NCBI RefSeq assembly: GCF_964194025.1
Contig: NC_134470.1
Coordinates: 13,020,001-13,084,000 of the forward strand
Direction: 5' to 3'
DNA: 64,000 nt
Origin: Convolutriloba macropyga
Taxonomy: Eukaryota
The translations under genes and the position numbers were made by a program. Within the stretch, counting starts at the first letter, position 1, and each line of letters opens with the position of its first letter. Positions 7,601 to 59,149 of this stretch are shown in pieces. The notes under the pieces are model-generated. The model searched no databases, was not told the origin of the DNA, and saw nothing but the letters and a program-made list of their open reading frames with translations.

Positions 7601-8521
7601 ACTGTATGGTGTGAACGGAGGTTCTTGAGATATTGGCTGTAAAAATGGGGTCGAAGGAAGCTAGTACTTGCGAACCGGTGTCCGGAATGTTAGCTGACGT
7701 AAATTTTATCCGAAAACGTCAAAAATTTGAAAAGTAGAATTAATTGCTGAGATAACTGCTGTAAGCAAACTTGAGTGACGCGCAATCATCTAACTCTCCT
7801 AAGCGTGAAATTAATGCAGTTGGCCAAGCCTCGAATGCCATGCCTCAGCGGCCAATGAAGTTTGATCTATTTCAACCAAACAAATTATTACCAACGAAAC
7901 TGTTATACGCGCAATAACTTTTCTGTGTTATCAAATTTTATTGGTTTTCGTCTCCTTTTCGTTTAATATTCCATTCGGCTAATATTCAGGCACCTTGCGA
8001 GCCATATTTGTTGTTCAAGTTCTGACACGGATAGTCATTTTCTTTAAACGAACTCTATCATGAATGCTCTTTTCAAGAATTACACCTAAACAACTATGTT
8101 GTATTTTCAAAAAGAAGTCGAATTGTTCGCTGAAAACATAAGTTGTGAAATTAGCTCTTATGAAAGCAGTGGAAACCCCAGTTTTTAAAACGCGCCCCCG
8201 CCGATCATTTGAGCGAACTTTGTCGGTTATGTTGATTATTTTGAGCTAGATGTAAAGTTGATGAAAGCTCAAAAGTTTGAAATTTTTTATGATCTCGTTT
8301 TTCTGTTTGTTTATTGTTCACTGATGGCTCTTGTACAAGAGAACATAACAAGAAAATTGAACTCTGACTTGTAGGGGGTCTACAAAGCTGCTATCTAGAC
8401 AAAAAGGTTATTAAGCGCAATGCTATTTGATAATAAGTATTCGCACTGTACTGGTGTGTGGGTGATCATTGGTTTTAACGCCGAGTACTCGGAATTGAGG
8501 CAAATGAAGTGTCTTTTTTAG

Positions 8522-8678
8522 GCAGGAGCGGATGCCTTGAAGGGGATGATAGAAATCGTGAAAAGGCGATTGAATATTCGCGCAGTGGTGAAACCAAATT
8601 TGCAAACGTTGATAGTCAACTTTACATTCCTGTCAAAGTAGATAATGCCCTTACAACTCTGTTGGATGCAGTTTGCAA
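8522..8678 (+). pseudogene. Duplicated 5' part of SNX14 exon 2 with intact acceptor
   Basis: Copy of 11387-11543; the reading frame runs into antisense LINE sequence and stops at 8778. Confidence 0.85.
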
Positions 8679-11386
8679 AATTACGATCGCTAGCATTGCT
8701 GTCAGTCCGATGTCTAGCAGAAACTCTAAGATACGTGTAATGCGGTTTCTTCAGAGAATTTATCTCCAGCTTCAATGATTGAATTTCAGAAATCAGCGAA
8801 TCTTCTTGTTTGTTTCCAGACAGATTTTTTAATACTGAATATTGAGTTGCTCTGTGCATCCGTTTAGATATTGATTTGTCATGGCTGTTAAATTAAATTC
8901 GGCAAAACCATAGCTCTCAAGTTTGGGATTTGCGTCTTGTAGGTCATTTTTAAAAATCAGAAAATTGTGGTCCTTGTGGTACTCCACTGGTAACTTCTAC
9001 TTGATCTGAAATTTCGTGGTTTATTTTTGACAAACTGTTTTCTGGTTTCCAGGTACAATTTCAGGAGGCCTAAAATTTTTTTAACAACTTCCATTTTCAT
9101 CAGCTTGTGTAGTAGCAAATCATGATAAAATTTATCGAACGCTTTCGCGAAATCTAGATAAAGTACGGTTAATTCAAGAACTTGTTTATCAACGTGTTTA
9201 GAAAGACTGAATCAAGGAAAAGCAAAAGTTGAATAACAGCTGATCTATTTTTCCGGAAACTGAATTGATTTTCGTGTAATTTTGTTTCGCAGACTTCGTA
9301 AAGTTCGTCAAAAATTTATTCCTCTAGCACTTGGAGATGCAGCATAGTAAACTAATTGACCGATAGCATTCATCGTCGGCTTTGTTTCCTTCTGTGAAAA
9401 TTGGTGAAAGATGATTAATTTTCCATATTTCAGGATAAATACATTTGTTAACCATTGTTTGAAAAAAGAAGCCTTATTGTTTTTGACAGTGTTTTACTTC
9501 ATTTTTTCACATATATGTTTCCAATGTTATCAGGTCCATTAGATTTCTTGAATTCCAAAATTTTCAAGAATGGTTATGATTTCGTCTCCGTGATGGTAAT
9601 TTTGTTTAGTTTTTGAAAAATATTTGACCTTCTCTGTCTAACTCCGTGGATGTGGACTGGTCTTGATATTTAACTGTTTGCGGAATTGCTGTCTTTTTGG
9701 CCAATTGATTTAGAATACTTTTGGATGCTTCTGAATTTTCGGCTTTTAAAAACATCGGCTTCGATCCCTCCTAGATCTGCATCCTGTTGTTTATTCAGCT
9801 ATTTTTCTAAACGCTTGATTTTTAGTGTTCGATCGAGTTTTAGAATCTTCCATTTGCTTTTTTTGGAAGCTAATTTCTTCATGAGAAAAGAGGTTGATTT
9901 AGATACCCAAGGTGGACAACCATTTGTAAGGCAACATCCAGTTGTGAGTTGGCGACGTTTGAGACGTTTGTAACAAAATTTTCAGGTACTCTATTTTCGC
10001 ACTCGTCAGTAGGAACTCATTTGACTCCAGTTGGCTTTTGAAAAATTGATATTGCCTGCAATTGTGATTTGACAATTTTGGTTTTCGTTTCTGGGGATTT
10101 TGCATAAATCATTAATGAGCCGTTTGAAATTTTCAATATCCCATTTATATGGACTGTTGTCAGGTGGATTATAGATATTACATAAAAGTGTGTGTTTTGG
10201 TTTTGTGTTAATTTTGACGATAACAATTTCATTTTTGCATTGGGTAAGATTATTTCTTCGTGCTTAATATGATCGTTAATAGCAACTAATGCGCCACCGT
10301 GTTTTGTCTTTAAATGTTCAGATTTTTTACAAATGTTCAATTTTTCGCTTGAAAAATTTTTCGTCTGACCATTTGTGTTCTCGTCCTCGAAAACAGTATA
10401 AGAAAGCCAAGCCCGGAGTGCATTAAGTTCTCTTAATCCACACACCGAAACTAATTTGGAGACCTAACTTTATGGTGTGAACGGAGGTTCTTGAGACTTT
10501 GGCTGTAAAAATGGGGTCGAAGGAAGCTAGTACTTGCGAACCGGTGTCCGGAATGTTAGCTGACGTAAATTTTATCCGAAAACGTCAAAAATGCGAAAAG
10601 TAGAATTAATTGCTGAGATAACTGCTGTAAGCAAACTTGAGTGACGCGCAATCATCTAACTCTCCTAAGCGTGAAATTAATGCAGTTGGCCAAGCCTCGA
10701 ATGCCATGCCTCAGCGGCCAATGAAGTTTGATTATTTCAACCGAACAAATTATTACCAACGAAACTGTTATACGCGCAATAACTTTTCTGTGTTATCAGA
10801 TTTTATTGGTTTTCGTCTCCTTTCCGTTTAATATTCCATTCGGCTAATATTCAGGCACCTTGCGAGCCATATTTGTTGTTCAAGTTCTGACACGGATAGT
10901 CATTTTCTTTAAACGAACTCTATCATGAATGCTCTTTTCAAGAATTACACTTAAACAACTATGTTGTATTTTCAAAAAGAAGTCGAATTGTTCGCTGAAA
11001 ACATAAGTTGTGAAATTAGCTCATATAAAAGCAGTTGAAACCCCAGTTTTTAAAACCCGCCCCCGCCGATCATTTGAGCGAACTTTGTCGGTTATGTTGA
11101 TTATTTTGAGCTAGATGTAAAGTTGATGAAAGCTCAAAAGTTTGAATTTTTTTATGATCTCGTTTCTCTGTTTGTTTATTGTTCACTGATGGCTCTTGTA
11201 CAAGAGAACATAACAAGAAAATTGAACTCTGACTGGTAGGGGGTCTACAAAGCTGCTATCTAGACAAAAAGGTTATTAAGCGCAATGCTATTTGATTATA
11301 AGTATTCGCACTGTACTGGTGTGTGGGTGATCGTTGGTTTTAACGCCGAGTACTCGGAATTGAGGCAAATTAAGTGTCTTTTTTAG

Positions 11387-35492: not shown

Positions 35493-35908
35493 ATGTCAGA
35501 TGATAAAACCTCTCAAGATCATGACGACCACCACCATCATCATCATGGACATGGTCATGGACATGACGATCCCTCGGTGCTTGCCAGCTTCGAACAGATG
35601 CTGTTACAAAATTTTGAAGTGACCGAAAGCGAAACCAAGAATCTCATAGACTCCCTGGGAATTGAACCAAGTTGGAACATTATGGATGTTGGTTCCGGAA
35701 CCGGTTTGCTGGCTCCGTTGTTCCTCAACAAGATACAAGAAGGATCGGGATCTTTGACACTGCTCGAGCCATCAGATATGTTCACAGGACACATGGAGGG
35801 GCTTGTAGAGAAGCATCAAGGAAAAGTTATTCATAAGAAATCATCAGTGGAAGACAAGAACTACCCGTGTGATGCGAACACGAATGGTTACGATTTGATT
35901 TTTGTGAG
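35493..35908 (+). CDS. Class I SAM-dependent methyltransferase with His-rich N-terminus, exon 1
   Basis: DHDDHHHHHHGHGHGH; motif I IMDVGSGTG; LLEPS; YDLIFVR ending at donor AG|GTTTGG. Confidence 0.85.
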
Positions 35909-36179: not shown

Positions 36180-37801
36180 ATGCTCGAACACCATTGTTGA
36201 TATTTTTGTCACTCTCTTTCTCATTATAACTAATAAGGTAGTTTATGATCTTTTTATTGTTAAATTTTATTAGTGTTAAAAGGATTGAAAAGCTTGTAGC
36301 TTTACGCGGTGTTCCAACTGCTTGTAACCAACTTTTGTTCCAACTGTTTGTAAATTGAACTTGAGAACAGAGCCTTTGAGCAAGTGCCAATTTTTATATA
36401 GTTTTTTCGCGTGCGGCTATATGACTTCTTCTTCTATCTTGCTTTTTTTGGTACGAAAATTTTCAAATGTTGACAAATATCTTCTAAGGGTAATTTTTGA
36501 TTTCATCATTGGCAGCTAGAGGTTTATGTGATTTCTTTTCATAAAAAATTGGTGAATTTTTAGAGTTGACCCGTTCTCATGGTTCTTTCCGTCACTCTCT
36601 CCCTTACTCTCAAGGTCTGGACTCATTCGTACTCATAAGGCAAAACCTAAGCTATTTAACGGTTTCCATTGATCTCTAACGTTTTCAGCAACTTTGACTT
36701 GACTTGTTTTCAAAAGTTATCAATGATTTTTGCTTTTTGCACGTTTTTTTAATTCTCGATATGTGATCGTTCAACTCAACTAACAGCAGCTCCGATTAGA
36801 TCTGCGTGGAGTTGTAATTGATGCTTCGAATTTATAGCAATGAATTTTAACAACTTCGACAATACTTGTTTTCAAAAGATCCTTATTTTTTTTTCTTTTG
36901 ACGGTTTCTGGAGTTTTTGTTCGGCTATCATGACAATGTCTCTCCGGCTACCATGACAATGAGTTTCAAATAAATCAATCAAATGTTTGGGATTCATCTT
37001 CAAAGGTTTTAGCATTTTAGACAATTTGATTAAAATTTTGAGCTTTTCCAATTCTGCTGTTTCCTGTAATTGTTGATCTTGTTATCTAGTCTTCTTACTA
37101 ATCACAGCTGTTATTGGTTTTCTGATTCATCAAAAATGAAGCTATTTCTGAGCTTAAGTTGTTAGCTGATGTTTTTAGTTTGAGAGCAGTGACTTTGAGA
37201 GCAATGAAATTCATGAGATTGAATCTGTTGATGTTGGGTTGCTACTGATAGATTAAATTCGTATCGTAGTTCCGGTTTCCACTAAAACCAGGGGTTTTAG
37301 CTTGTATTTCAGCTTGATGTTGTTTTTGTAGGCGGTCTTGCAGGGGGTAGTTGTGTACTGATGAAATTTAATGAAGTTTGGTCGTGATGATTGAGAAGTT
37401 GTAGTGTTTGCTAAGACGTTGGGTACCGTACTGTTTGTCTTGGGTAAATTTACTTCTAGCGGTGTCGCGGGCCGGAATGTCTCTCTAGTGAATTGTTTAC
37501 GTGTTTGTTTCTTTGCAATTGTGTCTGTGGTTTTAGTTCTCCTTTTGGATGATGTAACTGTCGTAGATGAATTTGTTGCACTAGTTGCTTGAGTTGGTAC
37601 TGCTGAAATCTTGATAGCTGAAGGAAAAGTTGTAGATGGGGTAACGTGAGTTGTGGGTTGTACTAGTCTGTCCAGTTGTTTAACTCCAGATTGAGGTTTA
37701 GAAGTTGATTGTGTATTGTATTCGGGCCAACCACTCGAAGGTTCCTTCTGAAAGACTAGTATCAATTCGTTAGGGATTGAAGAAAGTTCCTGAAAGATCA
37801 A
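36180..37801 (-). pseudogene. 3' accessory ORF (ORF-B): Ser/Thr-rich N-terminal part followed by a disrupted, possibly helical region; function unknown
   Basis: ORF 37253-37801 and broken frames down to ~36180; partial second copy at 52324-52968. Confidence 0.45.
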
Positions 37802-37980: not shown

Positions 37981-40677
37981 CTATACTGGAGACGTAGGAA
38001 CGTTGTGATCGTTTCTTTTTTCGTCTCTATTATTCTTATCATTTAGGTTTGGATAACCATTTTTATTCTCATTGGTTAGAGTTCGCATTCTATTATTATC
38101 ATAAGGTGGGCTTTGAGTAACTCTAGTTGTATTTTCAGATTTTGGAACTTGCATTGTCCTTTCTTTTTTTTCATCAGTGTTAGTTTTCTCTGAATTTGTT
38201 GCTGCTTGATAGATAGAAGTCAGAATTGGAACTGACATTAAATCAAATGTGGCAGCAAAGAGTGCTTTACTAAAGTGAATAGATGCATCTGTAATTTTGT
38301 TAATTTGCATTGCTCGAATTAAGCATAAGACTATGTCGATGAGTAGCTTAATGAATAAGAAAGCGGCAAAGAATGTTCCGCATCGCTCAATTATATATTG
38401 TATTTTGCCAAAGGTTTCAACAAATTGATTTTTAAAGAAGTCGGGTGGAATGAATGAATCCAGATAAATAGTTCTACAGTTATAATAATTTGTGCCTGAA
38501 ATATTTGAAAATGATTCTCTGCTACCTAATAGTGACTTAGTAAAGTGTTTGAGAACTCCTTTCATATTGGAGTTGAAATTTATTGAATTCCAGAAAGCCA
38601 TCATTTCTTTATATGTGTAGATAGAAGCTTGAATGCTTGCTGTAATTATATTAGCAATTTGCTGAATGACTATGTGTGGTTTAAAGAGTGCAGGTCCTCT
38701 TACTTTTATCTGCGGGGTTAATTCAACCCATGAATTGTCATCATCAACATCTAGTTGAAATAAATTGAATGTTTATCAGAGCACAATTGTTCTTTGGCTT
38801 CAGTGAAGGTTTGTCTAGAAACCGGATCAACTAAATGTATTTCATCTTCATAGAGAATTGGTATTCGGTTATAGCACTTACTAAGAATTTGTAAGGGTGA
38901 ATGAAATTCATGACAATTATATAACCAGGCAACATTGCCGTTTGTTTTGATAAACATAGATCTGTTTCTTGTTAAGGTATATCCAGCTAAACGCGGATTT
39001 TCATGAGAAATCATTAAAGTGTTGAGAATAGTTGAGCGTTCTAATTCACAGTCATTTCTTAATAGCTCTAGAGTAGAGGTTTGAAGTTGCCGAAGATTAA
39101 TAAAGCGCAAATAGTCAATTTTTGTTCCAAGATGGGTTTCGAAATCAATATTCTCATAAATTTAAAAATGCTTTGTATCAACTGTTTTGTTATCACTGGA
39201 ATAATATTTATTTTTAAGCGTAATGGCACTGGTATCAGATTTAAATTTGTGAATGGGTTCTCCAGTGTTCATATCGAAACCGTCACGACGACTAATATAT
39301 AGAGAATCATATGGCGTAGGATACACTATTTGTGGATGACTACATAAAGACTGTGGTTTATTGTAAACTTGGAAAATAAAGCTTTGTAAATCAAAGTCTG
39401 ACTGCGCTGAGCTAAGTTTAGGATCCTTAACTATATAGTATTTGTCATTAGCTTTAACCATTTGAGCGTTAAAAAAGCGAATCATAGTGAAAAGACAATT
39501 TTTGAGTTCATCGCAAGTGTATGCAAATGGATCAGTAGATGTAGAATCGCAGCCTCCGCCTGATAAAGGACAAGGTAGAGGTATATTTTGCCAGTTATTA
39601 ACTATGCCATCTCTGAAGTTTACATTCAGGCTAACATTTTGCGTATATGTTTCATAAGTATAGTGTGTAATCCAACCTCGGGAGTTATTTTCATTGTTTC
39701 CAGTTCCAACTTTGCCTGAGTTAAAGTTTTAGAACAAAGATGTGTCAAAATCGAATTCTACTGAACTAGAAGAAGGGGAAAGCTTTATCTTTTTCCTTTC
39801 CTTTGCAAGTTTGCATTTCTGAGCATCAAGCTTAACTGAAGTAGTAATAGTATTATGTCTGGCATCTTTTCCGGTAGAGTCAAAAGAATCACAAAACCAA
39901 CGTAATTGCTGTTGGGTTGCTTTACACATAGTTGCTTCTAGCTTAATTTTATACTTTCTTTGGTAGAGATTGACTCGTGCTTGATTAGTGCTAATTTTAT
40001 CAGGGCGAGTTTCGCAGGGTGCTACTTTGTTGAGAGAATACATCTGATGTGAAATCATTTTTGAGCAATCAAAGTGGTTAACATGAAGGTTTGGAGCTGT
40101 ATTCTCATAGATACTCATCTTTTCAATTGGTCTGGCGTCAGCAAGAGACGTTAAGAGTAGTAATGCAGGAAATATAATAAAGACCAGATACTTTGCGGAG
40201 CAAGCAGTTATAACGCAGAGAAAAGCAAGAGGTATTATAGCAATAAGTTTAAGAAACTGAACAGAACGAATTTGAGTTATTCATAAAGGATTCTATTTTT
40301 GAAGGAAGCGCTTTCTTATCAGTAAGTTTTTCTTTAAAGAACTTGTCTATATTCAGTGATGGCAGTGAATGTTCGTTGATTTTTGACCGTATCTCTGAAA
40401 CTGATAGCTTTTCAGGAGGCTTTAATAATTTAAGGTACGGGATTTCTTCAGTAAAGCAATTATTTCTATCTATGACACATTCTATGAAGTTTGGGTGAGA
40501 ATCGTTATATTCAATGAGTAATTCTAGTTTTGCAATACGTTGAGCAATTTCAGATTCAATATCAGTTGCAACAGGTGGGAACAGAGTTAAGCAAAGTAAT
40601 ATGAAAAGAAACATTTTGTAACTTACATTTATCACTTCGTCTATTGCTGGTGACTTTTTGATTTCTCCGTCTTCCAT
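37981..40677 (-). pseudogene. Envelope-like glycoprotein, class III fusogen type (chuvirus G / herpesvirus gB-like), frameshifted
   Basis: Hydrophobic signal segments, then HFDC...YSLNKVAPC...VNLYQ...C...WFC; CELERSTILNTL...NP...C...CYNRIPILY...VDPVSR...C; C-terminal TM CGTFFAAFLFIKLLIDIVLCLI and cytoplasmic tail. Confidence 0.75.
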
Positions 40678-40680
40678 TTA

Positions 40681-41540
40681 TTAAACGAAGACAGTATAAG
40701 GTGCGTCTAACAAATTCAAGTTAATATTATCCGTGAAATTAATCTGATATTTTAGCTCGTGAACGTGAGCGGGATTATATGGTACCCAAAATATAACCAA
40801 TTTTGCGTTATTTTCTGATGTTACAAAGAATGCAACTATTTTCTGTCGATTAGAAACAAAACACTTGTCAAGTTTTACAGTTTTATTTCCGAATTTCAAT
40901 ACTTTCTCTAGGAGGAATATTCTAATATAAGATAGCGGGTCATATGCAATAGTAAGAACTTGTGTTTCAAGGGAAAGTGGTAACATAGATTAAGGGTCTA
41001 CAGTAAAGGGAGCTTCAATGATATCAAGGTTTATTTCGTCTCTGTTGTTTAATTGGAAATGAAAGCGTTCAATTTGTTCTGGTTTGTTATGGGTCCAACA
41101 AACAATTATTTCTAAGTTTACAAACTGGCCTTTAACGAAGAAAATAACAATGTTTTTATATGAAATATACGATCGATCAATTGTGGCTGACTTATTGTTA
41201 TTTTTTCCGGTATGTTTTATCCGGTATGTTATAAGGAATGTAAGAAGTTGAGAAAGTTGTTCTTGAAGCTATAATCCAATAATCGTTTAACGGAATATTC
41301 ATTGATCAGTTAGTGTTTCTAAAACCAAACAAGGGACATTTGAATATATTTTCCCCAGAAGACAGCAATAGGATCTTTGTTGGAATTAATAGCAAGGAAC
41401 ACTACAGTTCTTACTTCTTTAGAAATTTGACGAATGGTTAAGGTGTTTAGTGTGAGTAGTGTTGTTTGGAATTCGAATCTACGTTCAACCTGAAGAGTTA
41501 TATACTCTTTTTCTGTAGTTGATATCTGAGAAAAGAACAT
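40681..41540 (-). pseudogene. Accessory ORF-A built from tandem ~95-aa repeated domains; function unknown
   Basis: Units 2 and 3 are clearly alignable (IVIFFV...VCW...P...FQLN..DEINLDIIEAPFTV versus IVAFFV...IFW...P...YQIN..DNINLNLLDAPYTV); unit 1 is weaker. Confidence 0.6.
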
Positions 41541-41685
41541 TTAGAATTGTTAGTGAACTAGGATACCTGGTATATGTGTGTTGTGACAAGTGTTAGCTGG
41601 TGGTCACAAATAGAAATGCTTAAAAACTAGTTTATCTAAGTTTTCTAAGTTTATTAGTCGAAAGGGACAAAATGTGAAAGATAGG

Positions 41686-41704
41686 GAGAGAGAGAGAGAG
41701 AGAT
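41686..41704. repeat. (GA)n microsatellite
   Basis: GAGAGAGAGAGAGAGAGA. Confidence 0.8.
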
Positions 41705-43314
41705 ATTGTTAGAGCTGAATTTGAGAGCGAAAGAAGTAATTGATTTCAGAAAGTAACTGTGAAAAGTGATTTTGAATTTTGGTAAGGCTATTAAATAGTG
41801 GTTGTCAGGGTTAAGTTACCAAAATATGTGTACTCAATTCTGATTGGTTGATGGCTAACCTTGACTAGTGGCATGTAGCGTTGTGATAAACTGGTCAAAC
41901 GACAAGCACATTACGATAACTTCGTAAAATTGAATGCTCAGGATTTGCTGTTTTTATATGTTCTATGCGATTATAATGTGTCTTAAAAAGGAACTTCTGG
42001 TTCGAATTTTAGAAATCGCAGATGTAGGGCTATAGTATAGATGTCAATGGTTGAGTTACGCTAAAAGGTAGCACTTGTACTTCAACAGAAACTTTCCGAG
42101 ACCTCTTAGAACTTATTGAGCTAACATTTGCTGTTTTATGTCCTTTGTAGGTGAACATTATATCTAAAAAAATGTACTTATAAATCGAAATTCAAAAATC
42201 CCCTGTGTCAGGCTAAGGTACTAGGTGTTAAGAACAACTGAATATAATTCTCAGGGTTTTAGAGTTTTTAAACATTTCCGGAGACTTTTTTTCGTGTGAG
42301 AAGTTGAATTATCAAACTTTAGTGTTGAACATCAAGTATAAAGTACGATATTTTCACTTATAAGCTTGATATAGAAAATTTGCTCGCAACGTTTTGTTTG
42401 TTAGGTTTTTGTGCGTTGATGTGCAAATTTTTAGTTTGGTATCTGGACGCGTTCATAAAAGGGGTAACTTAATTTTGAAATTTTTTGTATAATTCCTATG
42501 ATTTTGCTGACTTTATTAATTCAAGTTAGTGTAGGATTTAAATGCTTGTTCAACTGACTGGTGATAGAAGTGGGCTCAGGGAAAATAGTAAATCGATTTC
42601 TACTTGTTCTAGTAGGGGAATTTTGTTTGTTCTTAGTTGAAATAACCTTGTGTTTAGAAGTCGTAATATTCAGGTTAGTTATTTGTTCATAAGTGCTTCA
42701 ATGTTCATTTTAAACATTCCTTGGGTCCTTAAACTAGTAAGGTTAGCTCTTATCTGTTGACTATTTGGGCTGCCTAAATTTGCGTTTCCTGACTAAATGC
42801 GATTTTACGTGGATTAAATAGTTTGCAAGGGACAAGTTCCTGTACTTAAGGTATTTAGCTTAGATAATGGTATTTGCTCATAGGGACTTGTTTCTACTTA
42901 GCTTTTCTTTGGGTAACATGTGTTTTCAGCGTTAGTTTGTAATAAAAGGTATGCGTAAATTTTAAATTTGCATAAGCTTTGAACATGTAGAGAAGTTATG
43001 TGTGTGTGTAACAGCTTGCAATGGTGATTAATCGCGTACTTTGTGTAAGATTTGTGTTGAGTGGGCTATTTGCTTTTTGCCTTTAACTCTTGTTGACTAT
43101 AGTTGATCTCTTCTTGCATAGTAAATTCTAAACTTTAAATTTAAATTTTGTTCTTGTTAACTTAATTTTCCTCGACTTTTAGTTTCAATCTATTTCTTCT
43201 TTAACGTTTATCTTCTAATTTTTCTTTGATTCCATTTCTGTTATATTTTTCATTTTCTAAATTTCCTTTTTCTTTCTACTTCATTCAATCTTATTATTTA
43301 TCATAAATTGGTAC

Positions 43315-44076
43315 ATGGTGAATTATCTGCGGGAGACTGAGCTAGCTAGAGAACCCTTAGAAAACCCTAGGTGGTGGTTAGATACGAATGGGGTTAGTTT
43401 AGAACCTCTGAGCTTGATTCAAAATAGAAAGCGGAGGAGTCAATATTTACATTTCTCATACCAGGATACTGCAGGTCTATCTGCAACTCAATTCTTATAT
43501 TTCTTCTCTGCAAGTTATAAGTTTCCTCAACTCGTATTATCTGACGATGAAATTGATGGTATTATTAGAGCCATAGGAAGCAAACGCCCTTGGGAAAGAC
43601 GGGAAACACAGTGTGTCTCTGCAGAAACCGTCGATAAAATTAAATTCTTTCTAGGGAAAGATGTGAGTAAATTTTCTACCTTTTCAGGGCTTCCAACCGG
43701 GAAATAGAATGAAAGGGTAACTTAGAATGTAGTACGTGGAGGGGGGAACAGAGGGTGCTGGTTTAGGGTCAGATTTTAGTAGGCGTACAAGTTGCAATTG
43801 TTTTAGTTCTTCAAGAAACTTTACATGAGACCAGAGGAGAGAAATGACGAGCATTGGAAGATGCTACTGGATGTTGAGGATGAGCTCTACAATCTCGGGG
43901 AGACCTGGTGGAACCCCAAAAAAGGGCCAGTTTTCCAAGAGTGCTATTTACAGCTTTTTACTTGGAACTATCAGAACTGCCTTATTTTCAAAAACTCAAG
44001 TCTAATGTGCGCAGTGATGAGGAGACTGGTGCTGAAGGTAGCGTATGAAGAGAGAAAATATTTTATCTTCTTTTAG
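43315..44076 (+). CDS. Antisense gene inside the retroelement; predicted exons 43315-43662 and 43807-44076, ~205 aa, function unknown
   Basis: Two same-frame ORFs; phase-0 GTGAGT donor at 43663 and TTTTAG acceptor at 43806 bracket all five intervening stops. Confidence 0.55.
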
Positions 44077-44199
44077 TAAAGAGGGGTTTTAATGTTTGTA
44101 TATTATTTTGTTTTTATCATTTTTATTGCAGTTTTGTGCTTGGGGACGCTTTTATTATAAAAGTTTTATTTAAGGAGATTTTGTGTCTCTATTTCTTTT

Positions 44200-47100
44200 T
44201 GAGTTTATGTATCAAGTCAGAAGGAATAGGTTCACCAAAGAATGTAGGTGATTTTCTATTACGCTGAGGTCTGCTTAATACTTCATTTGCGTCGGGTAAA
44301 TTAGATATATTAGTTGATGCTGTAGTTGTAGAATTTTAAGGTGATGATTTGGGGCTATTATGCGTTGCTTGGGGGAATAATTTACGTGTAGCTTTAAATT
44401 TACTAGTATTATCAGGTGGGGTAGAAAAGTTTTCTTGCTGTGGGCTATTAGGTGAATACATGTTTTGTATAGTGTAGGAGGTTGAAATGCGTGGGGGTAG
44501 AAAATTAGAAGAGCTTGTGCCTTGAATATGTGTAGTGTTATTTACTCGTGTTTGTAGCGATTCTAAGCCTGAATCTTTTGTGGGGTAGACTCAACGTTAA
44601 ATGTTGGCTGTAGTGTACTACTAGGATTAACAGTATGTTGTGTTTCTACTAATGGCCACTGTGAATTAGCAATATGTTGTGCGCCTCTATGAGCGTTAGA
44701 TTTGGCTATATTATGCTAATTATATTGAGTATAATAATCATCAGTGTCGTCTGGGACTACATAGTTCTCAATTAGCTCTTGTATTTTTTCTTCTTTCGGG
44801 TAATAAGGTGCTATATGATTTCTATGCACGGTTTTCTTCTCATTTGTTTTATCATGTATTTCAAATGTAGTGTTAGTTAGCATTCGTTCCACTGTGTAAG
44901 GGCCTGAGCGTAGCTCTTGTAGCTTTTTAGACTTTAGTAGTCCTTTAGAGTGATTTTCTAATAGTACTTTTCTACCTTCAGGTATAGGCTTTCCAAGCTA
45001 AATCTATTTCTATACTTGTGTGCTTTATTCGTAGTTTGTCTACATTTAGTGGAGGTATTCGAATATATAATTTTAAATGTATTCTCTCGTTTTAACATTT
45101 CGTTTGATAATCTGTTTTGTAGTAATTTCTCTATCTTTTTGTTATTACAAGTTTCTTCACTATGCGAGTGTGGTGGTAGATTACTACAATACTCTGATGT
45201 GCATTTCTTTTGATTATCTCGTAGTAGTCCTATTTTTAGTGATAAGGGTATTTGTGGTTTTGTTCCGAATAGTATTTCATAAGGGGTGTATCCTGTACTA
45301 TAGTTTACTGCAGTATTGTGTGAAAATGCAAATTTACTAGTGTACTCGGACCAATTAGATCCACTTTTACTAATAAAATGTCTTAGGTAATTAGTCAAAT
45401 GTTTATTTTTTACTTCTACTTTGCCGTTAGTCCACGGTGAATATGCAGTTCGGGGGCCTAGTGTAATTCCTATTTCGTTTGTATAGTGAACAAAATCATT
45501 ACTAATAAAGGCTTTGCCATTATCATGTACTATTTGTTGCGGTATACCGCATGTGGTTATAAATTTCTCTAGTTGATTTACTGTTTCGAGAGCTTCGGCA
45601 TTCTTGCTAGGATATACTTGTGTACATCTAGAAAAAGCATCTAATATTACAAGACAAAATCTATTTCCTTTACTAAGTGGTCGTAGTGGACCTTTATGAT
45701 CAATGTGAAGTGTATGTAGGGGTATAGCTTCTAATTGTCCCCATGGTTCTAAGGGTGCTTCGTTTAAGTCTTTGCGTGCTGACTTATTAGTTTGGCAACT
45801 TAAGCAATCTAACATTAACATTTCAATCCATTTAAACATACCGGGCCAATAGAAATATCGCTTAACTCTATTATAAGTTGTGCTTTCTGCTCTCTGACCA
45901 CTAAGTTCATGCGTATGTGCGACTTCGCATATCTTTATAAATAGTGAAAGTGGTGCACATATACTAACGTCAAAAGAGCCGTCTTCACAAGGTTCAGAGT
46001 AACAGAGTAAATGATATTGACTCTCTAGAAACAACAATTTGAAAATATTTCTATAAGTTTGTAATGCTTTAGTTTGTTTAATTGTGTAGTCTTTTTCTGG
46101 AGCTTTGCCTGTTTTTAACCAATCTCTAACTTTGATTATCACGGAGTCGCTTACTTGTTCTTCAAGAATATCATCAGTGTCAAGATTAGCGTTTTTTGAA
46201 AAATCTGTAACTTTAGCTATTAAATCTAATGTATCTGTGTGGACATCCTTTTCTGAGTTTTGAAAAGCTTCTGGTTCAATAAGTTTCTTAAATTTTGTAC
46301 GTCTAATATAGTCGGCTTTAGCAGATTCTAATTGTTCAATAAATGAGTTTTCAATATTACCTTCTACTAAGCCTAGCCACTCTTGGTCATCATAACCTTC
46401 TCGATCATCACTTATTTCGGCTATTTCTTAAATCTCGGAGTAGTAGTGATTGTCATGTTCACTAGCCAGTTCTGAGGTTAACTTCTTTATTTTTTTTGTG
46501 CCGTAGCGAAAACAATCAGAAAAACTGTATAGCATTACAGTGCTCATCTATGTAGTCTGGTGCATCATCTACACTAAAGTCACCTTCATCGTTTATATTG
46601 ATTAGTTTCTTTCTTTCGCCTTTGACTTGAACAATAATTCGATAACAGTCGTTAGCTGTTGCGTCCTTATCGTCTTGATGCAATACAGAATAGTTCACTT
46701 CTTTTCCGTTAATATGAAACTTTTTATCTTTAGGTAATTCTTTGTATTCTAGTTGATAAAGTTTAGCATCTGCTAAAGAAACGTTTCGGCTAAGAATGTA
46801 AGGGAACGCTAAGTTTTTGCCTTCAGTGTAAATAATTTGCAAGTTTTGAAACTAAGTTATTACAACTTGATACTTAAAGAAACGATGTGACTTTTTTCCG
46901 CGTTGTGACCAAAGAAAAAGAATTGGTCTGTGATCACAATAGAGATAGATTGGAAATGGGGATCCAATAACATAAAATTTGTATGTTTGTAATGCAGAAA
47001 TTATTCCGCATAGTTCTCTATGTTGAGGGGACATCTTTTGTTCAGCTTTATCAAATACTCTTGAGTTTGCTGAAATCATACGTTTTCTATCAGGAAGATC

Positions 47101-49831
47101 TTGTATAAGGACACAACCTGTTCCTAAGTTAGATGAATCAGCATGTATATGAAAGGGATAGTCATTAGAAGGAAATGCGTTAGAAATATCGTGACAGAAT
47201 CTTTGTTTAGGGTCTGTGAATACCTTTTCGTGTTCTGGTAACCACTTGAATATTGTTGTATCTGTTGTTAAACCATATAAAGGTTTTGCATCTATGTGAA
47301 AGTTTAAAATATAGGTGTGATAGAAACTCATCATTCCTAAATTTCTTAAAACTTCTGTTTTCGATTCTGGCGTTTTTAGGTTTCTTATATCATCTATGCG
47401 TGAAGCAATAGGGGATAGTCCATCTTTAGATATAACATGTCCTAGAAATCTCACTTTTTGTAAGAAAAACATTGCTTTATCAGGGCCTGCTTTAAGGTTT
47501 GCCATCCGAAGCAAAGAGTGATACTCTTTTACTATTGTAAACATTTCTCGTTTATCTTTAGCTTGTAATAAAGTATCGTCTATGTATGTTATGGCTTGTT
47601 TACGTTTTATAAGAGGTCCGAATGCATAACGCATAAGTTTGCTGAAGTAACTGGGTAATAGCTTAAGACCATAAAGTCCTACTTGATAAGTGTACTGTCT
47701 GCCTCCTACAATAAAACTTGTAACCTTCTGTGTATCTTCGGTTAGTGGTACTTGATTATAAGCTGATGATAAGTCACTACTTGTAAAAATAGTTCCGGTT
47801 ATTATTGTCATTAGAACATTTAATGGTTCAAGTGGCCAACTAGAATTACTTGTATCAGATATAGAGTTTAGGTATCTAGCATCAGTGACTATTTTTACAT
47901 AATCCTGCTTAGGTAATATGATAAAAGGATTGACAAACCAACTATTCATATTGTTCTAATTGAGCTCTCTGATTATTCCTGCTTGAATTAATTCATCCAT
48001 TAGCTTTTCTAATTTATCTCTGAGTTGAATGGGTATTTCGCTAGGTCGTTGTTTTTTAAAGGTAGCGTCTTTCTTTAGGGGTAATTGAAATTTATGTTTA
48101 GTTCTACCAATATCATACTTATGATGTGAATAAACATCATTATCCTCAATTATTATTTCTATTAACTCAAACAATTCATCGTCATTCAAATCACTTTGTG
48201 AGAAATCGAAATTCTCCAGAAACTTTTCTAGATACTCTATGTCTTGGACTGTATTTCTATTTTGCTTAATTACAAAATCACTAACCGCTTTATTTATGAT
48301 TCGGTTGCTTTGTAGTTTATCTCTAAACTTAGGAAACTGGTCATTGACTCTAGGTCTACATAGTTCTTTGGCCTCGGTAGAGAAGTCTGTGGCTAATTCT
48401 CTTTCATCTTCTTTGCATTTTTCTATTAACTCACTTTCAATAATTTCGAGCACCTCTTCCTTTTCTAGTGTAATGGTTTCTACTTTTTGTAGTTTATCAA
48501 TATCATCTTTGCTTGTATACACATAGATAGTTATGCCTGAAATCTTAAATGTTTGTTCAATTAGAGAAGATATCTCTCTCCAATCCATTCCGGCTCAACC
48601 ACAAGCTATTTTTGGCATCGCTATACAGCGTAAATTTAGTCCTAGTGCGTGATCTCTCATAGCAATTAGCGTAGTTTTGATTATCAATTGTTGGCTTCTC
48701 ATAATGATTAGCCTTAGTGATGAGGTTATATACTAGGTTATTATCTGCTCTGAAAGTTATTATGTCACCTATATCACAGTTCTTACTTTTACAGTAGTCC
48801 TTTAATAATGGTATTCTTTTGGAGATTGTGATAGCAAAGCCTTTTCTCATTTCTGCATCTGAGGATATTGTGTGCGCTATAGGCATATTAGAGTCAAATA
48901 TAGATTGGGTACGAAAATCTACATATCTAATGCAAGAATTAGTTTGAATTTGCTGTCCTTCTTGTAAATTGTTTACTACTGTGTGTAGTATAGAACAATT
49001 GTTATAGTCTTCGCTTTCATTTAGTATTATGCTTGTAAATTCAGCCCATTTTTTGATATTGTACCTTTGTATAGGTTTGTCGGTTATATCACACATAGCA
49101 TAACCTATTATTCCTCCATTTATCTGTATTGGGTGATTCTTTTGATTCTCCATAAATATGGGTAGAAATTCTTCAGATTGTGGACAAAGTGTGTTTACAA
49201 AGACTAGGTCAGCTTTTGCAACATTTATATGAGGCATGAAATATGTTCCTGTTGGAAATAAAGCTTGACTGGGGTGCTTTTGTTTGTGCAATTGTGTACT
49301 TTTCTGTTGTAGAAAGATTAGTTGAGCTATGTTTAAAGCAGTCATTTTAGCTATGTATGGATAATCCTTCTCATTGTTGAGTGAGCCGCAGCAAATTAAG
49401 TTTTTTTCAGTTTTTAACTCTACTGCGGGGATATCGAAGTGAAGTGCCTTTAGAAACAAATGACAAAAATCAATACCTATTATGTTCTGTCTCTGTTCTT
49501 TAGTCACGAATACTTTATGGGGGACTGTATATTTACCTTCTGTTTCAAAACTAGATTGGATAGTTGTGTAGCCAAGCATTCTTATTGAGGAACCAGTATA
49601 TGTTTTTGAATCACAGTTTGTACTTTGTAGATGCAAATTTTGTGCAAGGTTTACTAGAGGATGTTGGGTGATTGATGATAGTGCAAGTTGATCCTGGGTC
49701 AATCATAAATTCTACTTCTAAACCACTATTATTTTTAATGGATCCGGTGGCAAAGTGAGGTATAAGTTGAGGTATATTCTTGACTTAGTACTACTTTCTT
49801 TAGTAGCGTTCGGAGACTTTAATAGTTTAAA
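44200..49831 (-). pseudogene. pol: pol: aspartic protease, dUTPase-like spacer, macrodomain, RT, RNase H, integrase (frameshifted)
   Basis: FMIDPGSTC (degenerate D-T/S-G); DLSSAYNQ and YIDD; HADSS, ELCG, YCDHRP; HTHELSG...CLSC; HIDHKGP, HDNG, NGKVE; RSGPYTV. Confidence 0.92.
48514..48910 (-). other. TARG1/OARD1-like macrodomain within pol
   Basis: IAHTISSDAEMRKGFA...VYNLITKANHYEKPT, then after a frameshift LIAMRDH...IAMPKIACG*AGMDWREISSLIEQTF...ITIYVYT, collinear with the TARG1 motif pattern. Confidence 0.85.
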
Positions 49832-51189
49832 GGGAAGAAGTCTGTTAAAGCATTTACGTAGTCATCGTCACCTTCAACGAAACTTATTTGATTTGGTTGT
49901 TGTTGAATATTGTTAGGTTTTGATTGTTTTTGTTGTAGAGAGTTGTTTCTATTTGGTGCATAGAAGCTAGAGCCTTGTTGTGGCTGGTGCTGTTGTTGTG
50001 GTGATGGTGATTATTGTTCAGGGTTTGGTTCATTATTTCTATATGTATTTTGCTGCGGGAAGGTTTGTTCGTGTGATTGAGTGAATCTGTTACCATAGTT
50101 GTTAAAGGAGGTATTTTGTTGTTGATAGTTAGGCTTGTTGAACCTAGGATTATAGTTTTGAGTAGCCACCTCTTGGTTGATAGCCTTGGTTTCTAGGACC
50201 ATTGAATCTTGTATTGCCTCGGTTATTCTTTCTATAATCATTAGAGAATGTTATATTTTGCTTTCTTGGTTCTGCTAGTTCCTTTCTCAGTTTATTAACA
50301 ATATCGTCAATCTGTTTCTTTGTACATCTAGAGATGGAATGACCATTACTTCTGCAATAATCATAGAATCTAGTACTGTTAGGTCTGCCTTTTATGTTCG
50401 GGTCTCTAGGCCTAGAAGTATCTATAGCATTTACTTCGTTGCTTTTGAAAAGGCTGGTTAAATCTATGATTTTGCTCTCAAGTGTTTTACGTTTATCTAG
50501 TCCTGTAGCTCCATTAGACTCTGTTGTTACAGAAAACGTTAAAAGTCTTTGACGACTAAGTGATCAACAAACTGTGTCCAAGTTTTTGAAGGATCCTCAA
50601 TAAGTTTCTCGTGCGCTTTGCGTTTTAAACCTTGTGGTCTTAGTCCTCTTATAGCAAAATCTATGTATTTCTGACTTCTCTGTCTTTGTTGGATTTCGTT
50701 CTCCTTTCTTATATTGTCATCACCTGCAATGCTTGTTGGTATCTTTTCTGGCCAACCTTTATCAATTCCACTCTTTATTCTATGTAGATAGTTCTTTATC
50801 AATTCTCCTTCCTGCCTGTATGTGTTCTCAACCTCAAGTTTAAATCTAAATTGGTCTTTACCGTCTGTGAATCTCTTTATAAATTCATCTTTTAAATTAT
50901 TCCAAGTTGTAGCATCTGTGACTTCACTTTCAAACCATTCTAGTGCTGTATCAGTTAAAAGTGAACTGAATAAGGATTGTTGCCTTTTATCATAGCTAGT
51001 TTGTGCAGCGTGCGTTGTAGGCCTAGTTCCTAATGAAAAGAGGATTTTATTTTCTACAGAGTTCCAAAAAGAAGTGGCATCCTGATTAGTATCATTGCCT
51101 GAAAAAGATACAAGTGAAAGATTTGGATGTGTTATGGGAGTTTCAGGTGGTGGGATACCGGGTGGGGTACTAGTACCACTAGTAGACAT
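49819..51189 (-). pseudogene. gag: gag (capsid region, degenerate CCHC knuckle, N/Q-rich tail)
   Basis: LTDTALEWF...TWNNLKDEFIKRF...RQEGELIKNY; FYDYCRSNGHSISRC; ends ...DFFPLNY*. Confidence 0.85.
49825..49834 (-). promoter_or_regulatory. Tandem -1 ribosomal frameshift slippery site C CCT TTA AAC at the gag-pol junction
   Basis: Two overlapping X XXY YYZ heptamers in gag phase, two codons before the gag stop. Confidence 0.7.
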
Positions 51190-51271
51190 TACTGAAAAGA
51201 CTGTTAAGATCAGAGGAACACTCTAAATTAAATTTTAATAATAAGCTTACGATTAAGGGAGAAGCCTTCTG

Positions 51272-51502
51272 ACTAGCTAAATTAGACAAGTTAAATTTTA
51301 GGGCCTCTCTAATAGTATAAATGAACAAGTTAAATTTAGGCAGGCTTCTCTTATAGTTTAAATGAACAAGATAAATTGAAATTGCCTCTTTATATTAAGT
51401 GAACAATTTAAATTGAATTAGCCTCTCTATATTAAGTGAACAAGTTAAATTGAATTCGCCTCTCTATATTAAGTGAACAAGTTAAATTGAATTCGCCTCT
51501 CT
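51272..51502 (-). repeat. About six tandem ~37-bp repeats in the retroelement leader
   Basis: Unit AGAGAGGCGAATTCAATTTAACTTGTTCACTTAATAT, degenerating towards gag. Confidence 0.85.
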
Positions 51503-52323: not shown

Positions 52324-52968
52324 ATCATGGGCAGCTATAGGTTTATGTGATTTCTTTCATAAATAATAAGTGAATTTTTGGAGTTGACCCGTTCTCATGG
52401 TTCTTTCCGTCGCTCTCTCCCTTACTCTCAATGTGTGGGCTCATTCGTACTCTAATAAGGCAAAACCTAAGTTTTTTAACGCTTTCCATTCATCTCTAAC
52501 ATTTTCGGCAACTTTGAGTTGACAGGTTTTCAAAAGTTATCAACGATTTTTTTTTCATTTTGCACATTTGTTTTAATTCTCGATATGTGATCGTTCAATT
52601 CAACTAGTAGCAGCTCCCATTAGATTTGCGTGGAGTTGTAATTGATGCTTTGAATTTATAGCAATGAGTTTTAACAACTTCGACATGACAGTGTTTATCA
52701 TGACAATGTCTCTACGGCTACCATGAAAATGAGTTTCAAATAAATTATTCATATGTTTTGGATTCATCTTCAAAGGTTTTAGCAACTTAGACATTTTTTG
52801 ATCAAAATTTTGAGTTTTTCCAATTCTGCTGCTCCCTATAATCGTGGATCTTGTTATCTAGTCTCCTTACTAATCACAGCTGTTATAGGCTTTCTGATTC
52901 ATCAAAAATTGAGCTATTTCTGAGCTGAAGTTGTTAACTGATGTTTTTAGTTTGAGAGCAGTGACTTT
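52324..52968 (-). repeat. Diverged direct copy of 36505-37196 (ORF-B fragment)
   Basis: Collinear sequence with many substitutions and one ~50-bp indel. Confidence 0.9.
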
Positions 52969-53189
52969 CAAAACAAATTTTTTTTAAGTTTTAACCGTGC
53001 CTGATAATCGGTTTGGGTTACAGTGCCTCGCGCTTAGTGTTGACAGGTTTTATTGTTTCTTTCTATTGAGACTAAGTTGCGTCCAATTAATGTTTCCCGC
53101 TTGTAGCTAATAGTTTTTTCACTTTGAGACCATTAGTTTTTTTTCTTTTGATCTTTTTTTGTCTTTAAACATTTTTTTATGTAATTATC

Positions 53190-54985
53190 CTAATAAGTTT
53201 TCTAATAAATGAAATATATGAGGTATAAAGATCTGATTTTTAACAAAGTGTTTAAATGACTGTGAGAGCCTTTTTTCGAAACCTTTAGCGAAATCGAAAT
53301 TCGAAAAATTTCGTTGTCGTTTTTACTTCTTTTCTACAGAGGTGATGTTTACTGTCGGGTATCCCGTAGTGCTAACTTGTTCCTAATACTTTGTTTTAGT
53401 ATATACTCTGTTTGCTGTCGAAGGCTTTTCTTGTTTGTTTTTGCTTTGGTGTATGCTCTCTTGCCTTTCGAAGTCTGCTTGTCCGATGAACCTAATAATC
53501 AGATTTTGAATTTATAATTTAGTTCTTTGGATTGTAATTGAGGACTTTTCCTTTGTATTTTTTTTTCATGCTATCTCTGTATTTGTTTTTGTTCTTTTAT
53601 CTTGCTATCTCGTATCTTTCTCTCTCTCTCACTCTGGCCTTTTCTGGTCTTTCCCATTATAGCCCCCAGCTTACTGGTCACATAACCTATAGCCCCCCAA
53701 TCATGGTAATTCTACCATAATGGCGGGCTATAATGGGAAAGACCCGCCTTCGGTTGCTTTATTTTTTTGAGGCGTTTTTAAGTCCATATTTTCTCTCTCG
53801 ACAATTGAAACCTTTATACGGAAGTTTTATTCGTTAGCCATTAATTATCAGTTTGTTGAGATTTATCAGAGTTTTTGGCAAGTGTGAATGCTAAGATTTG
53901 CATCAAATTCTTTAGTTACCTCAAAATTAAAAATTTGTGCACAAGAAAATTTTGTGGTAAAATTGGCAACTGCATACTTCAAGCCTTGCTCGTAAAGTAG
54001 AATAACTGATGTCTAAACTGTTGATAATAGGGCAACATTTTCTAAATTTGGTCCTCTTTATTGTTGCTTCGTTTGATCCTTTTGCAGCGCGATCATGTAT
54101 TTGTACTAAACGCTTTTTTTTCTATTAATTTTCATAAGTTTTCTAATAAATGGTATGTTTGAGGTATAGAGATCTGATTTTTAATGAAGTGTTTGAATAT
54201 GAGAGCATTTTTTTCAAAACTGTTAGTAAAATCGAAATTCGAAAAAGTTCTGGTCTTTTTTACTTATTTTCTACAGAGGTGACGTTTGTTGTCTTGTATC
54301 CCATAGTGCAAACTTTTTCTTATTATTTTGTCTCAGTATATACTCTGTTTACTATCGAAAGCTGTTCTTGTTTTTGTTTGCTCTGGTGTATGCTCTCTTG
54401 CCTTTCGAAGTCTGCTTGTCCGATGAACCTTATACTCAGTTTTTGAATCTTCAATTTAGTTCTTTTTTTGCTGTGTTCTTTTTTCATGCTATCTTTGTGG
54501 CCATTTCTATTCTTTTTTCTTGCTATCTCTTTCTCTCCCGCTCTTTCCCTGGCCGTTTCGGGTCTTTCGCAATATAGCCCCCCCCAGCTTACTGGTCAGA
54601 TAACCAATAACCCTCACAGTCATGGTAATAATGCCTTAATGGGGGGGGGCTATTTTTTCATGGGGGGCTAAAATGGGAAAGTCTCGCTTTTCTTTTTTGC
54701 TTCATTTTTTCTGAGGCGTTTTTAATTCAGTCCATCTGTTCTCTCTCAACATTTGAAAACTTATTACGAAAGTTTCATTCGTTGCCAATTAATTATCAGT
54801 TTGTTGAGATTTATCAGAGTTTTTTGGCAAGTGTGAACGCTAAGATTTGCATCAAGTTCATCGGTTACCTCAAAATTAAAAATTTGCGCACAAGAAAATT
54901 TTGTGGTAATATTGGCAATTGCACACTTCAAGCCTTTTTCGTTAATTTGAATAACTGGTGTCTAAGTTGTTGATAATAGGGCAAA
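53190..54985. repeat. Old tandem duplication (two ~0.85-0.95-kb units), each containing a small MITE
   Basis: TAAGTTTTCTAATAAATG...GTTGATAATAGGGCAA occurs at ~53193-54035 and ~54135-54984. Confidence 0.8.
53646..53745. mobile_element. ~100-bp MITE-like element (further copies at 54560-54685 and 1-60)
   Basis: TIR GGTCTTTCCCATTATAGCCC / GGGCTATAATGGGAAAGACC. Confidence 0.7.
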
Positions 54986-55044
54986 CGTTTGTAAAATTGG
55001 GCCTTTTATCGGTACATAAACTTGCTTGTCTTGATCTAAAAAGA

Positions 55045-58805: not shown

Positions 58806-59051
58806 ATTGGTGTTGCATCATTGCAAGGCGGACGATGCAATCAACACCCTCCTGGGATACCTGCGACCCGGCGGGCTCTTTGTGATACAGGAGTTTGTTC
58901 ATGGCACCTGTGCATATTGGGGTGCTGGTGTAGTGTGTGAAGCTCTACATCAGATGGAACTCAACTCCATAACTGACATTCGCACTCATGTCCTGGGAGA
59001 AGGCAATGAAAGCCAATATGTACCTCCCGCCATGTACCACAACTTGCTCAG
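58806..59051 (+). CDS. His-rich class I methyltransferase, exon 2 (gene probably continues downstream)
   Basis: Phase-2 acceptor TTCAG|A restores FVRLVLHH; LRPGGLFVIQE; candidate donor CAG|GTTCAC. Confidence 0.8.
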
Positions 59052-59149
59052 GTTCACAGATTGCTAAATTTTGAGATCGTAGAGACAAATAAATATTTTT
59101 TTCGCGAAAATCAAGATTTATGGAACATCCTCTGGAAATTTAAAATGCA

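Follow-up and report, generated by a model that had tools for sequence, protein, structure and literature searches.

A predicted intron-split antisense gene, carried in several divergent versions by an env-bearing Ty3/gypsy element of Convolutriloba macropyga

The locus studied here raises the question of how one protein could be read from two + strand open reading frames that share a frame, are separated by five in-frame stops, and lie inside a retroelement whose own genes run on the - strand. It is located in a 64,000-nt stretch of Convolutriloba macropyga DNA (the window, whose positions are used throughout). The sequence-only reading had proposed that a donor and an acceptor with phase-0 junctions remove all the stops and yield a protein of about 205 residues, and this was borne out when coordinates, phases and length were read again. 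In this copy, the coding part of exon 1 (43315..43662, +, 116 codons) ends in GAT before a GTGAGT donor (43662/43663), and that of exon 2 (43807..44076, +, 89 codons followed by TAG) begins with TTC after the acceptor TTGTTTTAG (43806/43807). The predicted phase-0 GT..AG intron (43663..43806, +, 144 nt) contains the five stops, each of them a TAG and the last one coinciding with the acceptor, and splicing would give a product of 116 + 89 codons, i.e. 205 amino acids, with its stop codon at 44074-44076.

Compared with its relatives, this copy nevertheless appears slightly atypical, having lost both the start and the stop positions of the family. Its ATG at 43315 was private among 51 loci compared. 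In most intact relatives, 120 codons separate the ATG from the donor; this places it four codons earlier, at the equivalent of 43303, where this copy has no start codon. Likewise, a stop is found at the position of 44044-44046 in 13 of the 14 closest relatives, ten codons before the stop of this copy. With both ends displaced in this way, the family product should measure about 199 (198-202) amino acids; the proposed length thus holds for this copy but not for the family, and the start and stop first taken as the norm are shifted ones. The description of the protein as rich in Trp and Tyr was correct to a moderate extent, not an extreme one (8.3% here, and 6.2-9.4% across 15 copies).

The element that carries the gene is 16.5 kb long and occupies the - strand, in the order gag, pol, small sense ORFs and env. 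Its LTRs, in direct orientation and with approximate ends, lie at 36505..37204 (3' LTR, -) and 52324..52976 (5' LTR, -), and their identity is 88-94% in ungapped segments and 83% with gaps. Pfam searches located a broken gag (Retrotrans_gag, 50150..51222, -), a pol broken by stops and frameshifts (44716..49702, -) with RT, RNase H and an integrase with its C-terminal domain in that order, and an env-like fusion protein of the Monjiviricetes_fusion family (PF24664; 37981..40280, -) in four broken pieces, three of them above the cut-off. From this set and order of domains, the element is assigned to the env-bearing Ty3/gypsy group. Small sense ORFs (40249..41540, -) stand upstream of env; two of them, 40684-40989 and 40993-41268 (-), are paralogs with 29% identity, conserved in 20 of 20 copies and matching no Pfam family above the cut-off. 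The antisense gene sits about 600-640 nt past the end of integrase, between integrase and env and about 6 kb from the 3' LTR; the pol-env gap measures 4.4 kb, and no sense ORF of at least 70 aa was found in the 3-kb stretch around the gene. This arrangement is general in the family: of 35 loci, 34 have integrase on the opposite strand downstream of the gene, the single miss being a locus cut too short there.

Other features were seen in and around the element. A macro domain of OARD1/TARG1 type lies in pol upstream of RT (48560-48940, -; phmmer E 6e-5 to PDB 4j5r), tandem 37-nt repeats precede gag (51263-51502), and a degenerate direct repeat of about 940 nt follows just beyond the 5' LTR (53166-55007). 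Elsewhere in the window, near-identical ORF pieces about 2.9 kb apart (7151-7597/10017-10463 and 5418-6026/8518-8892, within 5418-10463, -) apparently belong to a repeated mobile-element fragment. With regard to the host, a SAM-methyltransferase-like exon with a DVGSGTG motif (35493..35908, +; Pfam matches below the cut-off) lies upstream of the element, and a probable next exon with an LHH..LRPGG motif (58806..59067, +) fits it in phase 2. The element would thus reside in a probable 23-kb intron of a methyltransferase-like gene (junction 35908/58806). The sense orientation of the antisense gene in this host intron, pointed out earlier, is real for this copy but incidental, because copies occupy at least 16 contigs.

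The spliced reading was evaluated across copies. A DNA search of the same genome returned 42 matches, and more came from searches by flank and, with the best 150 of 275 candidates scored, by protein; after removal of 29 duplicates, tandem-array repeats and truncated pieces, 96 loci were retained, 91 of them with both exons. A GT[AG]AG donor was found in 84 of these 91, at most 6 nt from the end of exon-1 similarity, and an AG acceptor in 88, at most 15 nt from the start of exon-2 similarity. At an exact position, the chance rates of these motifs are 0.0006 and 0.060, respectively, and their conservation is far beyond chance. The spacer was kept in every two-exon locus, with a length of 107-256 nt that falls in all three phases (35/34/22 by remainder modulo three). 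Only 35 of the 91 spacers are divisible by three in length, against 56 that are not, so that read-through cannot yield the protein. Protein similarity among copies breaks off at FF[LF]Gx[DNK] and starts again at F[FYC]. A GT[AG]AG donor and a YAG acceptor stand at a fixed codon position while spacer length is free of frame, as in spliceosomal GT-AG introns.

The exon frames are indeed under constraint. Fully open frames were found in 46 of the 91 loci, the other 45 being broken. Where dS could be estimated in between-lineage pairs, dN/dS was 0.04-0.24, and no value above 1 was found between lineages. Between this copy and locus L002, identity reached 90/90/54% at codon positions 1/2/3 and 68% in the intron. 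These values point to purifying selection on a + strand gene. The three frames of the opposite strand are closed, with 4-14 stops in each of 15 copies, which had been chosen for their open + frames.

Could the spacer be something other than an intron, the two ORFs being separate, or remnants of a decayed single ORF, or the shadow of a sense-strand frame? The junction is deduced from DNA, and other AG dinucleotides upstream of 43806 in this copy could compete as acceptors. Among the joints listed for four sequencing runs of unrecorded kind, none fell at 43662/43807, an outcome that carries no information on expression. Against a reading without an intron stand spacers of every phase with fixed GT[AG]AG and AG ends, a second exon whose first residue is Phe and not Met, the closed opposite frames, and outside homologs that run uninterrupted and join exactly at the predicted junction. 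A continuous stop-free ORF, or a lack of conservation of the splice sites, was looked for among the copies and not found; no intronless copy appeared either, as judged by junction-spanning matches among 28 matches of the homolog P0049 in genome G000 (best 150 of 358 candidates scored). We therefore regard such readings as hardly credible and hold the existence of the gene, and its splicing in this family, to be nearly certain, transcription of the + strand and splicing of the product being deduced from conservation. The central proposal of the sequence-only reading, an intron-containing antisense gene inside a retroelement, is in this respect confirmed.

Outside homologs and structure prediction give a picture of the product. 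A profile search against 1.84 billion representatives returned 37 matches. Three clusters (P0008; P0016 with P0045-P0048; P0020 with P0049) are uninterrupted over the predicted junction, where they read FFLG[EK][NED]FF; they sit on contigs of 509-3,230 nt and may be spliced transcripts or intronless genes. A large further group (P0037, P0051 and many other matches) ends in FFGED-VS, which resembles the unspliced run-on of exon 1 here and suggests that the same donor exists in another genome; the best match of this group in G000 was 34-36%. Within the second cluster, P0048 (430 aa, uninterrupted) carries a long extension at its N-terminus, including a basic stretch that resembles a nuclear localisation signal.

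AlphaFold2 applied to P0049, a natural uninterrupted homolog, with a 50-row alignment, gave a mean pLDDT of 80.6 and a pTM of 0.80, with one all-helical domain over the equivalents of both exons. The product is thus likely to be a single helical domain of about 200 aa, as modelled. A read-through model with the intron retained was poor (pLDDT 49.9, pTM 0.32), its fold search being uninformative, and was set aside, as was the idea that exons 1 and 2 are repeats of each other, rejected on comparison. Foldseek with the P0049 model found no match at E<=0.001 in PDB or BFVD, which does not prove a new fold, and the best VIA-align match had a Z of 4.6 and an rmsd of 3.4 over 88 aligned residues. The protein is not a membrane protein, because no 19-residue hydrophobic stretch exceeds 1.54. 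A basic helix around residues 40-48 (e.g. RKRRSQY) holds an Arg that hardly varies (R44 of alignment A5). Most of the conserved positions are occupied by hydrophobic or turn residues (PW, VS..T, FFLG, WW, Q..Y), and neither His nor Cys is conserved in the alignment, a pattern that would fit a binding module better than an enzyme. No Pfam family was matched at E<=0.1 by either exon, with 36 members also scanned, and this includes bZIP and the Transposase 28 domain (TRP28, PF04195). No named relative was found in PDB sequences, in word-index searches (exon 1 for longer proteins; P0049), in JGI metagenome and IMG/VR contigs, or in Rfam over 41300-44800, and ESM Atlas gave nothing at 0.9.

If the gene is real, is it the property of the element or has it been taken over by the host? 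A domesticated gene, expressed as part of the methyltransferase transcript or maintained by selection on the animal itself, would agree with the sense orientation of this copy in a probable host intron, with its two open exons beside broken gag, pol and env, and with the existence of tandem cassette arrays. The state of the frame is, however, unremarkable, because, by estimate, a stretch of 0.6 kb should contain fewer than one break at the rate seen in pol and env (about ten over 7 kb). Moreover, the gene always adjoins integrase in dispersed copies, half of the loci are broken, and most array copies carry stops or frameshifts, so that we consider a host-serving gene very improbable. The main array (G000:C7:55066251-55081690, loci L092-L093) comprises twelve tandem 1,288-nt antisense cassettes in one rearranged element, each with upstream block, gene and downstream block, the disruptions lying mostly in exon 2; a smaller, more broken cluster is found at G000:C4:68.265-68.279 Mb.

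The population of copies revealed a feature on which the sequence-only reading was silent, namely that the gene exists in multiple discrete versions. Sequencing-run depth was higher on the flanks than on the gene, and the idea that most copies lack it was considered; this was rejected, as copies carry divergent versions, one being present in each of 30 copies selected through the downstream flank. Exon 1 fell into about nine groups, with 29-61% amino-acid identity and synonymous sites near saturation; a further 'group', L029, is a frameshift artefact left out of this count. DNA clustering of the 91 loci gave 11 types, some borderline. Pairs inside most version groups shared 96-100% DNA identity. 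Between copies of different version (96 pairs, 15 copies), pS and pN were 0.076 and 0.010 in integrase but 0.79 and 0.40 in exon 1; these backbone copies were the best matches to the downstream flank of the window, which inflates similarity on the integrase side. The env side was not selected on, and there identity was 95.8-98.0% between versions and 96.0-98.3% within a version (18-20 copies). The borders are sharp, near 43083 and 44147: between-version identity was 95% at 42980-43080, about 50% across the gene and 98% at 44180. Upstream lies a nearly invariant block (43002..43083, compared among nine other versions), a candidate antisense promoter or crossover zone, and downstream a conserved block (44147..44300) that starts with the AT-rich TTTTATTATAAAAG stretch, a candidate 3'-end signal.

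Versions also appear to have been recombined internally and with their surroundings. Loci L033 and L053 are 96% identical in the intron and 99% in exon 2, but 70% in exon 1. A mosaic lineage of 11 loci combines its own exon 1 with an exon 2 common to another version, whose intron type is also found in 6 of the 11. A second variable module, non-coding, lies at 41900..42750 and occurs in about five haplotypes, partly linked to gene version: one haplotype accompanies four versions, and three versions have more than one haplotype. Strict pairing of version and cis module over 41260-43000 was accordingly rejected, linkage being partial only. Some haplotypes of this module carry 171- or 182-nt tandem repeats, and an (AG)n tract adjoins it (about 41686-41703). 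Hypermutation was likewise rejected as the source of the versions, because they are discrete and under purifying selection. Template switching is established for retroelements, and the simplest account is probably that co-packaged genomes have traded old cassettes by this route. The old polymorphic cassette is also likely to be kept by balancing selection, though the pol-env zone may simply tolerate exchange, since the neighbouring non-coding module is polymorphic too.

What function would maintain such versions? One possibility is that the gene regulates the cycle of the element itself in a conserved manner, in RNA export, transcription control or nuclear import, in the way of Rev, Tat or HBZ; its versions would then be functionally equal remnants of old subfamilies, with pol and env homogenised by recombination and sweeps and no selection for diversity. 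This is consistent with strong purifying selection lacking any positive-selection signal, with the polymorphism of the adjacent module, and with the basic helix and its nearly invariant Arg, which could bind nucleic acid or serve as a nuclear signal. The antisense product of Grande is reported as nuclear in the part of that study available (PMC7264820). Sweeps that leave integrase and env 96-98% alike must, however, spare nine versions 600 nt from integrase, and the loose association of versions with non-coding haplotypes does not favour a regulator paired with its cis target; this makes it a rather unlikely explanation, though the first to be weighed against a host-directed role.

Discrete, old versions that coexist in one backbone are the pattern of recognition and incompatibility loci. 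It may thus be considered that the gene acts between elements, in copy-number control, superinfection exclusion or self/non-self recognition, with version-specific action or immunity, and the expansion of an exon-level mosaic lineage to 11 loci agrees with this. A cognate partner is nevertheless hard to place: among the parts compared, integrase, env and two of the small sense ORFs are 96-98% alike whatever the version, and the non-coding module follows the version only in part. We judge a factor of this kind distinctly unlikely, less probable than a regulator.

A host-directed accessory or counter-defence factor is favoured over both, at a confidence that falls just short of even; this preference is based on the population pattern and on analogy. 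Against it, sequence and fold searches found no function-bearing homolog, the between-version signal is one of purifying selection with no direct sign of an arms race, 45 of the 91 loci are broken, and this copy lies in a dead element. Taken as a whole, the best explanation, in which an env-bearing Ty3/gypsy element carries a two-exon accessory gene with its own promoter, a spliced helical product of about 200 aa and a host target that favours many versions, appears to us evenly poised.

From a mechanistic point of view, the + strand would be transcribed from an internal promoter, perhaps in the invariant block 43002-43083, and only this antisense mRNA would be spliced, to a soluble product acting in trans. 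An intron carried in reverse in an RNA is invisible to the spliceosome. The packaged genomic RNA would hold the splice signals reversed and hence remain unspliced before reverse transcription, which may be why the intron persists; this account fits the retention of the spacer in every two-exon locus. Versions could then move to other backbones when the template is switched within the conserved flanks, upstream near 43002-43083 or downstream from 44147, a single switch at the exon 1/intron border giving the mosaic lineage. Negative frequency-dependent selection would give rare versions an advantage, which is what a counter-defence protein facing a varying host target or recognition should show. 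As the antisense mRNA would share polarity with antisense silencing RNAs directed at the element, its expression could continue even under silencing of the genomic RNA. A bolder formulation, a hypervariable 'allele slot' in which an antisense intron gene with a new fold exists as balanced versions, shuffled whole or by exon, serves counter-defence or recognition and evades antisense small-RNA silencing, is offered tentatively and is to be held somewhat doubtful.

Several known systems can be compared with this gene. Antisense ORFs between pol and the 3' LTR of Ty3/gypsy elements have been described, according to the available parts of these studies, in maize Grande (gene23), rice RIRE2, Retand (TRP28 ORFs) and the fungal Boty (brtn); gene23 has its own internal promoter (PMC7264820, PMC11963269, PMC8365987). 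Like these, and as far as those texts go, the present gene is antisense to gag-pol, lies downstream of integrase, occurs in nearly all copies and has no known function. It resembles the aORF-3R group in its antisense position between pol and the 3' LTR, its presence in all 30 flank-picked copies and its low dN/dS (0.04-0.24). By contrast, it is found in an animal-type env-bearing element, contains a spliceosomal intron inside its coding sequence and has no TRP28 or SMC match. Plant aORFs are, in the sections accessible, about as conserved as other proteins of their elements, whereas here a deep polymorphism stands in a homogeneous backbone. In the available text of one of these papers, the word 'intron' does not occur (PMC11963269), and another, in its accessible part, urges a search for spliced antisense transcripts (PMC7264820).

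The parallel with HBZ of HTLV-1 drawn in the sequence-only reading is acceptable in so far as HBZ and APH-2 of deltaretroviruses are likewise antisense protein-coding genes of integrated retroelements with a spliced mRNA (predicted here). HBZ is, in the part of the source available, a bZIP protein transcribed from the 3' LTR, with spliced and unspliced forms that differ at the N-terminus (PMC10186651). The parallel fails in sequence and position: the present gene matches neither bZIP nor any other Pfam family, occupies an intergenic slot of its own some 6 kb away from the 3' LTR, overlaps no sense ORF and needs splicing for any full product. Metazoan env-carrying Ty3/gypsy elements ('errantiviruses' in the broad sense, with gB-type env) share with this one, in the main text consulted, the gag-pol-env and RT-RNase H-integrase order and a match to the class III-type fusion protein family (PMC13524379). 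That survey capped the pol-env distance at 1,000 nt and the total length at 10 kb, so that an element of 16.5 kb with a 4.4-kb gap falls outside its filter, and the word 'antisense' is absent from its main text (PMC13524379). The anti-silencing protein VANC of VANDAL DNA transposons is, in the portion available, likewise a family-wide transposon accessory gene and offers a possible working model of counter-defence, but it belongs to plant DNA transposons, each VANC pairs with the tandem motif of its own family, and it has no sequence match to the present protein (PMC6719617). No strict pairing of version and motif was seen here in the one region compared. In a literature that was mostly open-access main text, neither this protein family nor any antisense gene split by an intron in a gypsy element of animals was found described, and term look-ups in the accessible text of PMC5408684, PMC12477816, PMC4402516, PMC13547354 and PMC5142424 yielded nothing further.

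LTR elements are usually taken as free of coding introns, and their accessory genes are little characterised outside plants and vertebrate retroviruses. The position and orientation of the present gene are known from other elements; the protein family, the coding intron and the cassette polymorphism are new in that no description of them was found. The comparative evidence indicates that an env-bearing gypsy element keeps a selected, intron-split gene by holding it backwards; the case also brings to light a protein family for which no annotated relative was found, together with a region of very old polymorphism embedded in a young backbone. Surveys of elements based on ORFs would overlook such genes. 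Few cases of transposon counter-silencing have been answered, VANC being called perhaps the most convincing in the available part of that paper (PMC6719617). If balancing selection is indeed at work, this family would offer a tractable natural system for the study of transposon factors against host silencing.
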